19,700 nt of DNA, taken from UHGV virus genome UHGV-0129547; one strand, given 5' to 3'. Numbering within the stretch: position 1 is the first letter of the stretch; every line of letters begins with the position of its first letter. The notes beneath the pieces were generated by a model, which was not told the origin of the DNA, ran no database searches, and was given only the letters and a program-made list of their open reading frames with translations. The position numbers and the translations under genes are program-made. This stretch comes from a virus. Positions 3,962 through 12,702 of this stretch are shown in pieces.

Positions 3962-4155
3962 GCTTCACCTCCGCAGAGATCAAACGTTGGATGCAAAATA
4001 TCGCAGGTGCATTTCTGCATCTGTGAATGGAGAAGAGAGGTTAGATTGTATGTGCGCATAAACGTCCCCGTTTAGCGCAGAAGTCACCGGAGTTGTTCAA
4101 GCTCCAATGGCATGATTATGGCTGGTTGATTATGGGAAATCAAATGTGCTGAAAA

Positions 4156-7684: not shown

Positions 7685-8610
7685 AAATCCACCCCGTAAA
7701 TCCAGTCAGTGTTTGTCAGGTCGAGTTTTGGTTTTCCGGCTGTCACGCCAGCCTGTTGTTTGTTACGATTGATTTCGAGCTGGGTCCACTTGTCGCGAAG
7801 TTTAGCCGGGCTCAGCACGTTACCGGACCAGAAGTTGTCCTGGCATGCCCAGCGGAACAGCACGCACATGTCGCGGTGGTTACGTCCGTCACGTTCACGC
7901 ATCAGGCGGATATCGTTAGCCCACCCTGCAAAATTCGGTTTTCTGGCTGAGGGCGCGATGGTCTTCACCATGTCAAACATCCACTCTGCGGCGGTCAGGT
8001 CTTCTGCTGTCCCCCACTTGCTGCCGCTCTGAATTGCAGCATCCAGTTTCTCCAAAGGAAAGTCGTTTTCTGGCTGGTCAGAGGATTCGCCAGAATTCTC
8101 GGACGAAAAAGGTTTTATATTGTCTTTTGTTAGTTTGTCTTTTGTGTTTACCTGATTCGGGTAAACGCCTTTACCTGATTTGGGTAAACTTTTCTTACCT
8201 GATTCAGGTAAATTTACCTCTTTCAGGTAAACTTTATTTTTCTTACCTGATTCGGGTAATGTTGACCATTCACTGACCACATTATTAATGCCGATATTCC
8301 GCCCACTCTGAATAAAAATCCCACGCTTTACCAGAACGCTTTTTGCAGCAGAACACTTGTGCGGCAATATCCCGGTTAACTCGGAAAGTTGCTCGTTGCT
8401 CACCCAATCCAGTTTTTTATTAAAGCCATATGTTTTGCGCATGACAGCCAGGAAGACCAGAAGCTGGTGCTGTGTTAATCCGGCCAGCATTACAGCTTCC
8501 AGCAACTCATTTGCAATGCGCGTATAACCATCATCGAGATCTGCCACGCGCGGCTCCTTTTGTGCCACATCCGGCACTGGAAAATTGAATATCTCAGCAG
8601 TGTTTGCCAT
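7681..8610 (-). CDS. Replication initiator O-like protein
   Basis: From the ATG at 8610 (GGGAGG 4 nt upstream): MANTAEIFNFPVP...; the central region is encoded by the iteron repeats and the C-terminal domain (...WANDIRLMRERDGRNHRDMCVLFRWACQDNFW...) is lambda-O-like. Overlaps the P start. Confidence 0.85.
   Translation of the reverse strand: MANTAEIFNFPVPDVAQKEPRVADLDDGYTRIANELLEAVMLAGLTQHQLLVFLAVMRKTYGFNKKLDWVSNEQLSELTGILPHKCSAAKSVLVKRGIFIQSGRNIGINNVVSEWSTLPESGKKNKVYLKEVNLPESGKKSLPKSGKGVYPNQVNTKDKLTKDNIKPFSSENSGESSDQPENDFPLEKLDAAIQSGSKWGTAEDLTAAEWMFDMVKTIAPSARKPNFAGWANDIRLMRERDGRNHRDMCVLFRWACQDNFWSGNVLSPAKLRDKWTQLEINRNKQQAGVTAGKPKLDLTNTDWIYGVDL
8121..8261. repeat. Origin of replication: five ~19-bp iterons plus adjacent short direct repeats inside the O gene
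   Basis: Iterons TTACCTGATTCGGGTAAAC (8148-8166), TTACCTGATTTGGGTAAAC (8171-8189), TTACCTGATTCAGGTAAAT (8196-8214), TTACCTCTTTCAGGTAAAC (8215-8233), TTACCTGATTCGGGTAATG (8243-8261), each with internal dyad symmetry (TTACC...GGTAA). They are flanked by TGTCTTTTGT repeated at 8121-8130 and 8136-8145. This parallels the lambda ori arrangement (iterons then AT-rich segment within O). Confidence 0.8.
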
Positions 8611-8696: not shown

Positions 8697-9236
8697 TCAT
8701 ATTGCCCCCAGCATGGTGGTGACCATCGCCATCAGTGGACCAGCCAAATCCGGGTCCACACGAAACATCGACACAATGCCTTCACTCATCTCCTTCAGTT
8801 TCTGGTGGCGTGGTGCGTTGAGAATGACAGCCTGTTTTGCCTCACTGAGTTCCTTTTCCATTTCAGCCAGCCGAGCCATGAAGCTATCCTGCTCAACCAG
8901 GTGGCCGCGATATTTCAGCGGTAGTACTGCCAGAATTGCTGGAGTCAGTTCACGCACGTTATTTCGGTATTTTTCAGAATCGAATTTGTTATCGAGAAAG
9001 CGGAACAGCTTCTGGCGTGCACGACTGACATCATCAGAAAAATCGATAGTGCCGCCGCCCTGTGCTCGATACTCATTCACAATGAGTGCGGCAACGACAT
9101 CCTGATTATCTACAGCCGACCAGGCGCGGATGGCATCACGGATTTTTTCGTGGCCTGGCACCTGTTTTATTTGAGAACGATTTATCACCGCAGTCGGGAT
9201 AAATCCGCTAGTCTGTTGGTATGTAAGTGGTTGCAT
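8697..9236 (-). CDS. YdaT-like protein (Rac-type, cII position)
   Basis: Contains ...RAQGGGTIDF... and ...LTPAILAVLPLKYRGHL..., resembling Rac prophage YdaT (QGGG and IPAILAILP motifs) from memory; located downstream of the Cro-like ydaS-type gene. Start at 9236 or 9242. Confidence 0.65.
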   Translation of the reverse strand: MQPLTYQQTSGFIPTAVINRSQIKQVPGHEKIRDAIRAWSAVDNQDVVAALIVNEYRAQGGGTIDFSDDVSRARQKLFRFLDNKFDSEKYRNNVRELTPAILAVLPLKYRGHLVEQDSFMARLAEMEKELSEAKQAVILNAPRHQKLKEMSEGIVSMFRVDPDLAGPLMAMVTTMLGAI

Positions 9237-9266
9237 AGTCATTGCCTTATCAGTTAACGCCGCAGT

Positions 9267-9494
9267 TTAGGCGGCAGAATTACTCGCGTTAAACAATGGT
9301 GCGAGGTCGGGACGAATATCTGCTGGTTTAATCTTTCCACCAGTGGCTGAGACAATTTTCATTACATAGCGGGCATCAATTCCGCCACCGTGTAGCCAAC
9401 GCCAAACAGTGGGTTGGGCTACACCGCATAGATCTGCCAGTCGTTTTTGACTACCTGTAATACTGATTGCGAGTTGAATGGTTTGATTTGTCAT
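9267..9494 (-). CDS. Cro/YdaS-like HTH protein (75 aa)
   Basis: From the ATG at 9494 (AGGAA 7 nt upstream): MTNQTIQLAISITGSQKRLADLCGVAQPTVWRWLHGG..., an HTH (Q-x-T-V-x-x-W) of the YdaS/Cro-like family; divergent from the CI-type repressor. Confidence 0.75.
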   Translation of the reverse strand: MTNQTIQLAISITGSQKRLADLCGVAQPTVWRWLHGGGIDARYVMKIVSATGGKIKPADIRPDLAPLFNASNSAA

Positions 9495-9525
9495 TATCAA
9501 TTCCTATTGGTATTGCAATGAATGA

Positions 9526-9554
9526 ATAATAGCAATGCGTATTAATCCAAGCAA
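9526..9554 (-). promoter_or_regulatory. Putative PR-like sigma70 promoter (minus strand) with overlapping operator words
   Basis: Minus strand reads TTGCTT (9554-9549), 17-nt spacer, TATTAT (9531-9526), about 30 nt upstream of the ydaS-like ATG. The word AATAGCAAT / CAATAGCAA recurs at 9528-9536 and 9552-9560, and the palindrome ATTGCAAT lies at 9512-9519. Confidence 0.4.
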
Positions 9555-9568
9555 TAGCAAAACGTGTT

Positions 9569-9595
9569 TTGACCATCAATACGCAAGCGTATAAA
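9569..9595 (+). promoter_or_regulatory. Putative PRM-like promoter for the repressor gene (near-leaderless mRNA)
   Basis: TTGACC (9569-9574), 15-nt spacer, TATAAA (9590-9595), ending about 10 nt upstream of the repressor ATG at 9605. The spacer contains the inverted repeat ATACGC-AA-GCGTAT (9580-9593). Confidence 0.35.
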
Positions 9596-9604
9596 TTAAA
9601 ACTT

Positions 9605-10297
9605 ATGAAAAAAGAAACTCTTGCTGATCGCTTAAACCTAGCGATGGAACAATCTGGAATGTCTCAAGGCGCTCTTGCAAAGGCGTCTGGCGTAGCTCAA
9701 CCCACAATCTGGAGACTGACAAGCGGCAACGCGCGCGGCTCAACAAAAATTGTTGAAATAGCTAATGCATTGGGTGTTCGAACAGAATGGCTCTCATCAG
9801 GCATAGGCCCGATGAGAAATGACGGTCAACAATCAGGGAAGCCTGCTGTCAGCCATTCCAAATACTTCAAAATTGACGTTCTTGATATAGAAGTCAGTGC
9901 CGGGCCGGGTGTAATCAACCGTGAGTTTGTAGAAGTTCTACGCTCGGTTGAGTACTCGTTTGACGATGCTCGTCACATGTTCGATGGCAGGAAGGCGGAA
10001 AATATCCGCATCATTAACGTGCGTGGTGACAGCATGTCAGGAACGATCGAACCAGGTGATCTGCTGTTCGTTGATATCACGGTTAAATCTTTCGACGGTG
10101 ATGGTATCTATGCGTTTCTGTACGACGACACAGCCCATGTAAAGCGTCTGCAAATGATGAAGGATAAGCTGCTGGTTATCTCTGATAACAAGAGCTACTC
10201 ACCGTGGGACCCGATCGAGAAAGACGAGATGAACCGGGTGTTCATCTTCGGTAAGGTTATTGGGAGCATGCCGCAGACGTATAGGAAGCATGGGTAG
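9605..10297 (+). CDS. CI-type phage repressor (N-terminal HTH, C-terminal S24/LexA-like peptidase domain)
   Basis: From the ATG at 9605: MKKETLADRLNLAMEQSGMSQGALAKASGVAQPTIWRL... (HTH) followed by ...NVRGDSMSGTIEPGDLLFVD...AHVKRLQ... (S24 Ser/Lys autocleavage module). The ORF-track start at 9569 is a TTG inside the putative -35. Confidence 0.85.
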   Translation: MKKETLADRLNLAMEQSGMSQGALAKASGVAQPTIWRLTSGNARGSTKIVEIANALGVRTEWLSSGIGPMRNDGQQSGKPAVSHSKYFKIDVLDIEVSAGPGVINREFVEVLRSVEYSFDDARHMFDGRKAENIRIINVRGDSMSGTIEPGDLLFVDITVKSFDGDGIYAFLYDDTAHVKRLQMMKDKLLVISDNKSYSPWDPIEKDEMNRVFIFGKVIGSMPQTYRKHG

Positions 10298-10343
10298 CGG
10301 ATTAGCTAATCATTATGATGTTGTTCAAATTTAAGAGGTCCGC

Positions 10344-11192
10344 ATGTCTTCGATTTGGGGAAAAAAGTTGATGACGAAAGAACAAGAGTCAAACACTGAT
10401 GAAGTGAAACCAGAGCAAGGAAGTTTGTTTGAATTAGAATTTCATGAATATACACCTTCAAGCTTAGGCACAGCACACCTTTCTGGTTTCGCTATTGCCA
10501 CTGATGAAATGGAATATGCAGTTAAAAGCATGCGCTCCACCCCACCTTTTCCTGTACAAAACCCAACTCAAGTACCGGCAGCGGAATGGTTTTGCACAAA
10601 TTTAGCTGAAAAATGCGGCATCGCTACACCTGTGTGCAAAATTCTCAAGTGTATTGCTAATGGGGAGTATGTTTTTGGCTCTCGCATAGAGTTTTCAGCC
10701 TGGAAATCTGGTCTCAATAGTCCTCAATGGATAAATTTGCTCTCAAATGCTTCTGAATCCTTAAAGAAGCAACTCTGGGCAATTTATGCATTTGATCAGT
10801 TTGTATATAACATTGACAGACACCTCAACAACTACTTATACATGGAAAACACCCGAGGCAATGTTATAGTTAAAACATTCGATTTTAGTCTAAGCTCTTT
10901 TGTTATAGGCTGGCCACGAAATACCCCTCATATACTACCAACAGACTCCAGTACAACAACAAACTGGACGATTGCTAAACAATTCATTGGCGACACTGAT
11001 GATCTGAGAAAGTGCGCATTATCTGTCCTTGACAAAATTGAAAAAATTGGAGTTGAGGCTATATCTGATATACTTAACTCTATGCCTGAAGCATGGATGC
11101 CACCAATGCATAAGGAGTATTTTTTGAAGTGGTGGGACAGCGAGGAGCGAATCGATAGGCTAAATGCCATAAGACTGGAGATAACATCTTGA
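10344..11192 (+). CDS. Kinase-fold protein with HipA/PI3K-like catalytic loop (282 aa); candidate effector of a lysogen-expressed two-gene system
   Basis: ATG at 10344 with AGAGG 6 nt upstream, 46 nt after the repressor stop. Residues 158-163 DRHLNN (10815-10832) match the DxHxxN / DRHxxN catalytic loop of HipA-like and PI3/4-kinase-like folds; FDFS at residues 179-182 resembles the Mg-binding DFG-like/YDLVS motif that follows it in HipA. AT-rich coding sequence. Much shorter than canonical HipA. Confidence 0.6.
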   Translation: MSSIWGKKLMTKEQESNTDEVKPEQGSLFELEFHEYTPSSLGTAHLSGFAIATDEMEYAVKSMRSTPPFPVQNPTQVPAAEWFCTNLAEKCGIATPVCKILKCIANGEYVFGSRIEFSAWKSGLNSPQWINLLSNASESLKKQLWAIYAFDQFVYNIDRHLNNYLYMENTRGNVIVKTFDFSLSSFVIGWPRNTPHILPTDSSTTTNWTIAKQFIGDTDDLRKCALSVLDKIEKIGVEAISDILNSMPEAWMPPMHKEYFLKWWDSEERIDRLNAIRLEITS

Positions 11193-11995
11193 AAACTTTC
11201 AAATACAGCTTAATCAGAGTTACACCGAACTTAGAGAAAGGTGAAACGATTAACGTTGGTTTGATCGTTTACCATGACTCTGACATAGACGTACGTATGC
11301 TCAATTCAGTTTCAAAACTTAAAGCGATTGACAAAGATCTTACCTTAGATTACTTAGAGGATCTTTCGACCTCGCTTTTTGATTTGTCACAAAAAATCAA
11401 CAATGCTGAACTTCTTCCTTGTCTTTTTAAGGGAGCATTATCGTTATCGTCATTTGGCATGTTCACTCTTCAAGCCAACGAAGATTACGAAGCTAAAGTT
11501 ACTGATCTAATGAATCGGTTAGTAAACCCACAAAAACAGCCACATAAACACTTGAAAAAAAAGGTTTTTTCTGAATTAAAATCCACCTTTATACAACATG
11601 GAATTTTCAGTAAGTATTTTGAAGATCTTTCCCAACATAAAATCGTAGCTAATTATCCAATTAGTAATGAAGAAGGGTTAGTTGCAGATTTTTTGTTAAA
11701 AAATGGCAAATACCATCTTACAGAAACATTAGATTTTCGTTCTGAAAATATAAAAAAACAAATGGGTGAAGCTGCGATAAGTGTTTTAACAATTACTAAA
11801 GCCTACGAATTATACAATTCAAATATTGATTCATTTGTAATTTTTGCCGCTGAAACGACAGCACAAGAAAAGTCAGCAAAACAGCAGCTAAATCTACTGG
11901 AAAAACACGCTGATAATCTTATCAACGCATATAGCAAAGAAGACATGCGTTCATATTACGAAAAGATGCTGAATGCTGCCTCTATGTTACAGTAG
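11189..11995 (+). CDS. DUF3037-like protein (268 aa), partner of the kinase-fold gene
   Basis: TTG start at 11189 overlapping the upstream TGA (T-TGA coupling), GGAG 10 nt upstream. N-terminus ...YSLIRVTPNLEKGETINVGLIVY... matches my recollection of the DUF3037 N-terminal signature (R-x-V-P-x-x-x-x-G-E-x-I-N-V-G). AT-rich. Followed by a terminator. Confidence 0.6.
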   Translation: MKTFKYSLIRVTPNLEKGETINVGLIVYHDSDIDVRMLNSVSKLKAIDKDLTLDYLEDLSTSLFDLSQKINNAELLPCLFKGALSLSSFGMFTLQANEDYEAKVTDLMNRLVNPQKQPHKHLKKKVFSELKSTFIQHGIFSKYFEDLSQHKIVANYPISNEEGLVADFLLKNGKYHLTETLDFRSENIKKQMGEAAISVLTITKAYELYNSNIDSFVIFAAETTAQEKSAKQQLNLLEKHADNLINAYSKEDMRSYYEKMLNAASMLQ

Positions 11996-12021
11996 AAAAA
12001 ACTGACTAATTTAATTAATAA

Positions 12022-12048
12022 CCCGGCCACCGTGCCGGGTTTTCTTTT
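12022..12048 (+). terminator. Rho-independent terminator ending the repressor-cargo operon
   Basis: Stem CCCGGC(12022-12027)/GCCGGG(12034-12039), 6-nt loop, followed by TTTTCTTTT (12040-12048). Confidence 0.6.
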
Positions 12049-12189
12049 GTCCCCTCCCCTCATCACACACCGCTCAAAAAACCACCACATCCCTGCTTCA
12101 GTTATCGCTATGCGATGCAAGTCACAAAATTAATTCTTTTTGCTATCAAACATTTAATATCAAAACACATCAGTCAATAGCAATAAGTA

Positions 12190-12218
12190 TTGATATCACC
12201 AATAGCAATAGCTATTAT
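12190..12218 (+). promoter_or_regulatory. Putative PL-like sigma70 promoter with embedded palindromic operator
   Basis: TTGATA (12190-12195), 17-nt spacer, TATTAT (12213-12218). The spacer and -10 contain the palindrome AATAGC-AATA-GCTATT (12201-12216). The 11-mer CAATAGCAATA occurs at 12175-12185 and 12200-12210, the same word family as in the OR-like region. Confidence 0.45.
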
Positions 12219-12495
12219 CACCATATCGCAACAACACAACGATACGGCAACCACCTGATTCACCGTTGCGATGACCGCTTAGATCCGCAGTTTGAATTTC
12301 AGCAGGCTTCGGGGAGTGCGAGGGGTGAAACGGACGCGTGAACGTCGGTGTGACCAGCTGAAATTAACTCAACATTTCATACCTCAGTCGCTTCAACGAG
12401 GCGGCTTAGTTATGACAACCGGCGGCCATCCACCGCCTGAATACGCGCAGAAGTCTCTATATGTTCAGCAGCCCAGCTTACGGGCAGGAGTTTTT

Positions 12496-12702
12496 ATGGT
12501 TCATCAACATTACGGAACACAGACCGTTAATCGCGGCGCGGTCATGCCAGGAATGCTGGTCAAACACAAAGATGGTACCTGGAGTGCATCAGCTAATTTA
12601 CGCGGGCGGCTTTATCTGCATCGCGGCATCGAGCGCACTTATACCCGTGATTTGCTCGTAGAAGTTTTTCTCGACGGACGCGGTAACGGCCTGAATCACT
12701 AA
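12496..12702 (+). CDS. Kil-like small protein (68 aa), putative host cell-division inhibitor
   Basis: ATG at 12496 preceded by GGCAGGAG with a 5-nt spacer; protein MVHQHYGTQTVNRGAVMPGMLVKHKDGTWSASANLRGRLYLHRGIERTYTRDLLVEVFLDGRGNGLNH. First gene of the PL-like transcript, upstream of gam as kil is in lambda; family assignment from memory is uncertain. Alternative start ATG at 12412. Confidence 0.5.
   Translation: MVHQHYGTQTVNRGAVMPGMLVKHKDGTWSASANLRGRLYLHRGIERTYTRDLLVEVFLDGRGNGLNH

Follow-up and report, generated by a model that had tools for sequence, protein, structure and literature searches.

The 19,700-nucleotide stretch analysed here, UHGV virus genome UHGV-0129547 (hereafter the window), is a lambdoid Escherichia coli prophage, and our subject is the control region of its CI-type repressor, together with the short repeated sequences that may serve as operators there. 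The gene order is that of lambda, inverted (Table 1). The minus strand holds P, O, a YdaT-type cII (Pfam YdaT_toxin, 2.1e-28) and a YdaS-type cro; then come a 110-bp cro/cI control region and, on the plus strand, cI, genes for a HipA-like kinase and a DUF3037 protein, a terminator, the left operator and leftward promoter (OL/PL), and then kil, gam, bet and exo. Repressor and cro thus diverge from the 110 bp between them, the layout of a switch. The 'toxin' names of the YdaS and YdaT Pfam families are historical, and in the prophage CP-933P both proteins serve as Cro and CII equivalents (PMC8630535, PMC9986795). The 3.1-kb stretch across the immunity region (9200-12300) is present with 100% identity in more than ten chromosomes.

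A sequence-only reading of the window had noticed that a short word recurs near both sets of promoters. The word AATAGCAAT is indeed present at 9528-9536, and CAATAGCAATA at both 12175-12185 and 12200-12210; at 9552-9560, where another copy had been placed, CAATAGCAA is found, but the next base is A, giving AATAGCAAA instead of AATAGCAAT. The palindrome AATAGCAATAGCTATT at 12201-12216 also stands, with arms AATAGC and GCTATT around a 4-bp spacer. While the recurrence is real, the repeated unit is a 16-bp dyad, of which the 9-mer represents one half-site plus one base, and the inventory of operators had overlooked a third site in the right operator (OR) and further elements in OL. Three exact copies of AATAGCAAT (9528, 12176 and 12201) occur in the 19.7 kb, all inside the two promoter regions, against 0.32 expected, a count that none of 200 shuffles reached. 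With up to two mismatches, the 16-bp pattern AATAGCAAWRNSTATT has seven matches against 0.38 expected, again all within the two regions and equalled in none of 200 shuffles. A perfect palindrome, AATAGCAATTGCTATT, found in relatives gives AATAGCAA as the ideal half-site, and the ideal operator, as read from sequence, is AATAGCAA·TTGCTATT, with the dyad AATAGC-N4-GCTATT. Its half-site centres are 10 bp apart, a distance that fits a helix-turn-helix (HTH) dimer.

The operators escaped a strict dyad search (arms of 6+6, no more than one mismatch), most of their right halves being degenerate; the search returned origin-like iterons in O. A weight matrix was instead built from 18 distinct OR1/OR2 sites of other genera, with the window and its two closest relatives left out. 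The only window positions scoring 16 or more are OR1, OR2, OL2 and OL1, where 16.0 is the 95th percentile of the best matrix score in shuffles. As this matrix, made from OR sites only, finds OL1 and OL2, the OL sites of the window are predicted from OR sites of other genera.

Table 1. Genes, promoters and predicted operator sites of the immunity region (positions in the window; matrix, score with the OR1/OR2 weight matrix).
Feature	Position	Strand	Basis and remarks
cro-like gene	9267-9494	-	75 amino acids, YdaS-family HTH; Pfam YdaS_toxin, E 9.6e-15
Candidate auxiliary site, AATTCCTATTGGTATT	9499-9514	.	Low confidence; 2 mismatches to the 16-bp pattern, matrix 10.7
PR, predicted	9526-9554	-	-35 TTGCTT (9554-9549), N17, -10 TATTAT (9531-9526); predicted start near 9519, toward cro
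OR1, predicted, AATAGCAATGCGTATT	9528-9543	.	Matrix 23.6; between PR -35 and -10, 4-bp overlap with -10
OR2, predicted, AATAGCAAAACGTGTT	9553-9568	.	Matrix 22.3; 2-bp overlap with PR -35, abuts PRM -35
PRM, predicted	9569-9597	+	-35 TTGACC (9569-9574), N17, -10 TAAATT (9592-9597); scanner call, 9/12
Probable OR3 (weak), AATACGCAAGCGTATA	9578-9593	.	Palindrome ATACGC-AA-GCGTAT between PRM -35 and -10; exactly 25 bp from OR2
cI repressor gene	9605-10297	+	230 amino acids, HTH_3 N-terminal domain and S24 LexA-like autopeptidase; Pfam Peptidase_S24 1.3e-18, HTH_3 1.8e-6
Two cargo genes, HipA-like kinase and DUF3037 protein	10344-11995	+	Pfam; rexAB position, co-oriented with cI
Intrinsic terminator closing the cI-cargo operon	12020-12041	+	Terminator scan: 8-pair stem, 6 GC pairs, T-run
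Conserved block, AATTCTTTTTGCTATC then TATCAAACATTTA	12132-12156	.	Matrix 12.3; about 75-85 bp upstream of the PL start
OL3, degenerate, AATATCAAAACACATC	12156-12171	.	20 bp from OL2; window score 8.9-9.4
OL2, predicted, AATAGCAATAAGTATT	12176-12191	.	Matrix 21.5; 25 bp from OL1; 2-bp overlap with PL -35
PL, predicted	12190-12218	+	TTGATA (12190-12195), N17, TATTAT (12213-12218); scanner call, 10/12; toward kil-gam-bet-exo
OL1, predicted, AATAGCAATAGCTATT	12201-12216	.	Matrix 19.2 on the plus strand, 16.3 on the minus strand; both half-sites consensus; 4-bp overlap with PL -10

The conservation of these sites was followed in three samples: 31 loci, all with distinct OR regions, comprising relatives of cI in named phages and in 23 genomes belonging to other genera of Enterobacteriaceae; 24 relatives (22 distinct sequences) whose OR regions were compared column by column; and 79 IMG/VR contigs chosen solely by the string formed by OR2 and TTGACC, which is present in at least 120 viral contigs of that database. 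The motif search in relatives with the same repressor helix, which the sequence-only reading had proposed as a check, finds the sites kept, including the second cluster. Across the 24 OR regions, three 16-bp blocks (at 9528, 9553 and 9578) and TTGACC are nearly invariant, while the intervening spacers of 9 bp and 3 bp show two to four different bases per column and the seven bases before the cI ATG vary as well. Within each block the variable positions are the central ones. OR1, at ATG-77 in all relatives, is fixed except for its first base and two central bases; in OR2, position 7 takes all four bases, one more position takes two, and the remainder is fixed. OR sites were found in every one of the 31 loci, and paired in all except the divergent Fraca-type loci and L031; the downstream sites lie 864-3251 bp past the cI ATG, except in ASU11, at a distance that varies with the size of the cargo genes. 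Stray matrix hits numbered only four in about 220 kb. Likewise, an OL cluster stands 0.9-3.0 kb past the cI ATG in each of the 48 IMG/VR contigs whose downstream sequence reaches 3.5 kb or more, with three stray hits in 783 kb. Taken together, the sites are retained, between varying spacers, in about 110 related prophages and viral contigs, and each of these with sufficient downstream sequence has a second cluster 0.9-3.3 kb beyond cI.

In the cro/cI control region, the three OR sites start at 9528, 9553 and 9578, a spacing of exactly 25 bp, the third being recognised by its position and conservation and not by its score. This block at 9578-9593 is probably OR3: 14 of its 16 positions are invariant in the 24 loci, despite its occupying a promoter spacer, it is identical in 75 of the 79 viral contigs, and its half-site, AATACG, is of a weaker type that also forms the right half of OR1. 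The hexamers of the rightward promoter PR on the minus strand (TTGCTT-N17-TATTAT) are those given by the sequence-only reading; in the 24 relatives the TTG of its -35 is invariant and its -10 nearly so, one column taking two bases. For the promoter of the repressor, PRM, that reading had proposed TTGACC (9569-9574) followed by N15 and TATAAA (9590-9595). Both hexamers are present, but the promoter scanner prefers TAAATT after the canonical N17, and the repressor ATG lies at 9605, not 9606. TTGACC and the ATT of the PRM -10 are invariant. The distance from TAAATT to the A of the ATG is 7 nt in 24 of 24 loci, the intervening seven bases being variable and holding no recognisable Shine-Dalgarno sequence in any relative compared. 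With TAAATT as its -10, PRM is predicted to start at 9604/9605, on the A of the cI ATG or beside it. With such a start, at or within 1-3 nt of the AUG, the cI mRNA made from PRM is likely leaderless. The corresponding start in BTP1 is predicted at about position 379527 of D23580, 36 nt inside the cI gene as annotated from a TTG at 379563. Relative to the predicted PR start, OR1, OR2 and OR3 are centred at about -16.5, -41.5 and -66.5; relative to that of PRM, at about -68, -43 (range -41.5 to -44.5) and -18. These positions are essentially those of the lambda operators.

A further candidate, the site at 9499-9514, lies 29 bp from OR1 and shares bases with both the PR leader and the Shine-Dalgarno sequence of cro. 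A form of it, AATTCC-N4-nGTATT, recurs 28-30 bp from OR1 in 81 of 89 distinct OR regions, a conservation that could be explained equally well by the cro ribosome-binding site. Its left arm, AATTC, is shared with the block upstream of OL, and the conserved AATTC-N5-GSTAT element of both regions could, in a reading we consider rather unlikely, constitute a fourth class of site, absent from the lambda scheme.

The second operator cluster lies over PL, past the genes cotranscribed with cI and about 2.6 kb from OR. Here too the hexamers read earlier (TTGATA-N17-TATTAT) are in place, and the scanner calls them; the pattern TTG(A/C)TA-N17-TATTAT is kept in relatives, with a start predicted at about 12225. 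The placement of OL2 and OL1 on PL repeats that of OR2 and OR1 on PR, with the same overlaps of 2 bp with the -35 and 4 bp with the -10, and operators thus overlap the -35/-10 elements of both scanner-called promoters, PL and PRM. A strong third site stands 20 bp to the left of OL2 in 37 of 79 distinct OL regions, often as the perfect palindrome mentioned above; it is lost in about 38% of distinct OL regions, including the window and ST104/BTP1. Farther upstream, 77 of the 79 regions carry the block AATTCnTTTnGCTATC (12132-12147), followed by TATCAA-N4-TTA. The consensus of integration host factor (IHF), WATCAANNNNTTR, matches the window at 12144-12156 and fits 63 of these 77 regions, with a variable N4, and the right half of the block (GATAGC) doubles as an operator half-site. 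Judged from its sequence, the block may be either an auxiliary half-operator or an IHF-type site. The lambda half-site word TATCACC, which appears twice near PL (12194-12200 and 12216-12222), was considered and judged a coincidence, since only TATTATCA is kept in relatives and looks like a -10 with its discriminator.

The protein expected to act on these sites combines two familiar domains. Among solved structures, the closest to the CI N-terminal domain is that of the 434 repressor (phmmer against PDB, E 1.6e-5 to 1.2e-4, residues 6-67), and in the alignment AQPTIWRL falls on TQQSIEQL, the recognition helix of 434, which defines the recognition helix of CI as AQPTIWR (QPTIWRLTS). The C-terminal domain is matched by UmuD, and the translation gives Ala99-Gly100, Ser143 and Lys180, the residues of an S24 autopeptidase; their Ser-Lys spacing of 37 equals that of LexA. 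Cro and CI share the segment GVAQPT(I/V)WR (BLASTP E 6e-9), and the helix of Cro reads AQPTVWR. The sites are co-inherited with the CI helix: G[VI]AQPTIWR is encoded downstream of the OR2 string in 78 of the 79 IMG/VR contigs; Fraca, ASU11 and the Superficieibacter prophage L029, with the helix AQPTIWR in CI and a different Cro, keep the AATAGC half-sites; and the heteroimmune relative PhiR5_1, a phage which has the same cII, O and P and HipA-type cargo together with a CI helix SQAAIQK, lacks the motif. At the level of sequence, then, the motif tracks the CI recognition helix and not the type of Cro, the pattern expected of an immunity-specificity module.

Fraca (L007), ASU11 (L008) and L029 also differ in the site nearest cI (GATAGCGGAGGCTATA or AATAGCGGAGGCTATA), which lies 33 bp from OR2. 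A GGAGG Shine-Dalgarno sequence for cI falls inside this site, which indicates that in these three the repressor mRNA is probably not leaderless and that the operator overlaps the ribosome-binding site.

We propose, with a probability of about 0.85, that the locus is a lambda-type switch in which CI acts on 16-bp operators over PR, PRM and PL. That the window carries OR- and OL-like operator sets for a CI-type repressor, defining an immunity specificity, had been suggested by the sequence-only reading and is supported, with refinements, by all comparative tests run. The repressor, a 434-like HTH domain joined to a LexA-type self-cleaving domain, would bind as a dimer to two-fold symmetric operators. 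OR1 and OR2, each with one consensus half, would cover the -10 and -35 of PR, which is expected to drive cro, the YdaT-type cII, O and P. From OR2, which abuts the PRM -35 at about -42, the position whence lambda CI activates its own promoter, the repressor may stimulate its own synthesis; at OR3, with its two weaker AATACG-type halves inside PRM, a high level of repressor, or Cro, would shut cI off. PRM should also transcribe the two cargo genes, as far as the terminator. OL2 and OL1 would cover the -35 and -10 of PL, the third OL site appearing to have decayed in this lineage, and Cro, with its near-identical recognition helix, is expected to compete for the same sites. The sequences show the sites, with their symmetry, spacing, conservation and co-inheritance with the CI helix; binding, cooperativity, activation from OR2, leaderless initiation and looping between OL and OR are drawn here by analogy with lambda and 434.

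Several observations weigh against such a switch or against details of it. PR matches only 8 of 12 positions of the sigma-70 consensus, falls below the threshold of the promoter scanner, and was not called. The matrix score of OR3, 8.4, is equalled at about 18 window positions and is not significant alone (that some 18 positions score at least 8 corresponds to a chance of about 1e-3 at one pre-specified register), and the conservation of this block could stem in part from the core-promoter constraints of PRM. OR2 and OL2 match poorly in their right halves, so any order of occupancy and any cooperativity are guesses. Lastly, the window has two good OL sites and not three, and with OL3 degenerate the full lambda scheme of cooperation between OL3 and OR3 may not apply.

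Other explanations for the repeated sites have to be considered. They might be operators of the YdaS-type Cro only, CI recognising another sequence, for the HTH of Cro contains the same AQPTVWR segment, and CI and this type of Cro are co-inherited in most relatives, which makes them inseparable in those loci. Fraca, ASU11 and L029 do separate them: their Cro is only 36-38% identical (helix KQPSVSRW, or no match), yet their CI helix is the same and AATAGC-N4-GCTATT sites stand at the same offsets from the cI ATG, together with an OL site except in ASU11. Moreover, without binding at the sites over PR and PL, CI could not keep the prophage in lysogeny, and we regard a role for Cro alone as highly improbable. 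We take the same view of the repeats as conserved promoter architecture, such as AT-rich spacers or UP-like elements, or as the relic of a duplication between OR and OL, and not as protein-binding sites. Every site does overlap promoter hexamers, OR3 fills the spacer and -10 of its promoter, and PR and PL share the -10 TATTAT; nevertheless, conservation is two-fold symmetric and limited to the 6-bp arms, the centres and the spacers between sites varying freely, whereas promoter spacers are not normally constrained in sequence. The recurrence of the perfect palindrome in relatives, and the different orientations of the motif at their OL1, also speak against mere architecture.

A host regulator or a second phage regulator, for example IHF or the YdaT-type CII, might share the sites or be their main user. 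An IHF-consensus match (12144-12156) does lie beside the conserved block upstream of OL, and a YdaT-type box, TTGATT-N6-AATCAA with one mismatch, extends over the cro start at 9483-9500. Both motifs, however, differ from the 16-bp dyad and fall outside OR1-3 and OL1-2; the box at the cro start is not kept in other relatives with YdaT, while relatives with a lambda-type CII keep the dyads, and such a regulator is an extremely improbable explanation. The YdaT box was in fact tried as an explanation of the region and rejected, as neither the copy at 9483-9500 nor a perfect match at 4126-4143 is conserved in relatives. As for simple chance, both regions are AT-rich, and families of two to four copies of a short word often arise in such DNA; the shuffles described above, the recovery of the sites by a matrix from other genera and their retention in about 110 loci already refute it, and its probability is practically nil. 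A lambda-type switch with CI at the 16-bp sites is the reading we retain.

A published operator for this immunity type was not found in the incomplete literature searched: searches with operator strings (AATAGCAAT, AATAGCAATAGCTATT, AATAGCAAAACG, ATACGCAAGCGTAT and others) returned unrelated primers only, and papers on ST104, epsilon34 and BTP1 describe no operator of this type. We conclude that the operator system is real, well supported and of a known lambda style, with a specificity for which we found no description. Mechanistically it is a textbook lambda-like switch, which confirms the paradigm without extending it. What the analysis provides is a concrete operator consensus, site map and promoter map for an immunity type that is widespread in enterobacteria, occurring in at least 120 IMG/VR contigs and, as prophages, in more than 15 genera, and that includes the Salmonella phages ST104, SE1, ST160 and BTP1. 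The map permits homoimmunity to be predicted from sequence, delimits the slot for cargo (defence) genes between cI and OL, and yields specific point mutations that can be tested in BTP1 and related phages.

Operators also vary within the immunity type. BTP1, the highly active prophage of the epidemic African S. Typhimurium ST313, departs from ST160 and from the family consensus at near-invariant operator positions (L006, 5551-5566 and 3474-3489): its OL2 is AATAACAAAACGTATT (G5 to A) and its OR3 is AATACTCAAGCGTATA (G6 to T). Spontaneous induction of BTP1 is about 10,000-fold above that of P22, and its discoverers left the cause unknown, suggesting that it may lie in the immunity region (PMC5322425). 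If OL3 and the altered positions matter as they do in lambda, they could explain this high rate, but that natural operator variation inside one immunity type sets the stability of lysogeny is a speculative idea that we consider rather unlikely.

Some features of the window lie apart from the operators. The counterparts of the two cargo genes in PhiR5_1 are annotated 'HipA' and 'HipD', and the content of the cargo slot varies among homoimmune relatives: BstA in BTP1, an ASCH-domain protein in 4A7, and a ParA-like protein in ST160 and a Klebsiella phage. Between PL and the kil-like gene (12219-12496) no N-like antiterminator gene was found, Salmonella relatives having gp24/N there; the PL leader of about 280 nt had no Rfam match at gathering thresholds when a put-like antiterminator RNA was looked for, and its fold is no better than that of shuffles (z +0.84). 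The iterons returned by the dyad search are four to five dyads TTACCT-N5-AGGTAA, about 19-29 bp apart, inside the O-like replication gene (8147-8260), and they resemble those of lambda-type replication origins. A partial tRNA gene on the minus strand (1-54; Rfam tRNA, 35.3 bits) is cut by the window edge.

The closest model for the DNA-binding domain is 434. The CI domain of the window is similar in sequence to the five-helix domain of 434, repressor and Cro share a near-identical recognition helix in both, and half-site centres one helical turn apart fit the same docking mode. In contrast, the helix reads QPTIWR and not QQSIEQ, and the operator is AATAGC-N4-GCTATT and not the 14-bp ACAA-N6-TTGT; the window holds no operators of the 434 type.

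The architecture as a whole is that of lambda. In both, cI and cro diverge around three partly symmetric OR operators at about 2.4 helical turns, of which OR1 and OR2 lie over PR (a predicted promoter in the window), OR2 lies at about -42 from PRM, and the weakest site is inside PRM; cI lacks a Shine-Dalgarno sequence, with the -10 6-7 nt before the AUG; cargo (rexAB in lambda) and a terminator follow cI; a second operator set lies over PL about 2.6 kb away; and the repressor has an S24 self-cleaving domain. The differences concern the components. The operators of the window are 16 bp long (AATAGC-N4-GCTATT) and exactly 25 bp apart, whereas those of lambda are 17 bp long (TATCACCGC...) and spaced by 24 and 23. 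The CI DNA-binding domain is 434/XRE-like, Cro is of the YdaS type and cII of the YdaT type, OL has only two good sites, and no N-like gene follows PL.

With CP-933P of E. coli O157:H7, the window shares the YdaS-type Cro and YdaT-type CII, divergent PR and PRM and a leaderless repressor gene (all three predicted in the window), cargo after the repressor, and a separate PL/OL; in CP-933P all of these features, among them the leaderless repressor and lambda-like OR/OL, have been shown experimentally (PMC8630535; PMC9986795). However, its repressor PaaR2 is a different protein from the S24-type CI of the window, and its operators are 18-bp palindromes with the half-site GTTTAGTAA, four of them equally spaced (PMC8630535), an arrangement that the window does not have. 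The YdaT box TTGATT-N6-AATCAA was not found at the cro/ydaT junction of the window, where CP-933P has it.

The nearest known relatives of the immunity region itself are those of the P22-like Salmonella phages ST104, BTP1, SE1 and ST160. Their CI N-terminal domain is 87.8% identical to that of the window (residues 1-74), with an identical recognition helix. In ST104/BTP1, GVAQPTIWRLTSGNARG is identical, OR1, OR2 and OR3 stand at ATG-77, -52 and -27, TTGACC has the same offset, and the OL1/OL2 pair is present. These phages differ from the window in their P22-like virion, cII type, replication genes and cargo, and in having N (gp24). Villafane et al. (2008) listed 'ST104' as a separate, unstudied repressor specificity (PMC2629481). 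As the identity of 87.8% is below the 92% rule of thumb for equal specificity (Villafane et al., PMC2629481), homoimmunity of the window with the ST104 type is rated, from sequence, as likely. In BTP1, cI and bstA form one operon with a single mapped start that is highly expressed in lysogens (PMC7067206).

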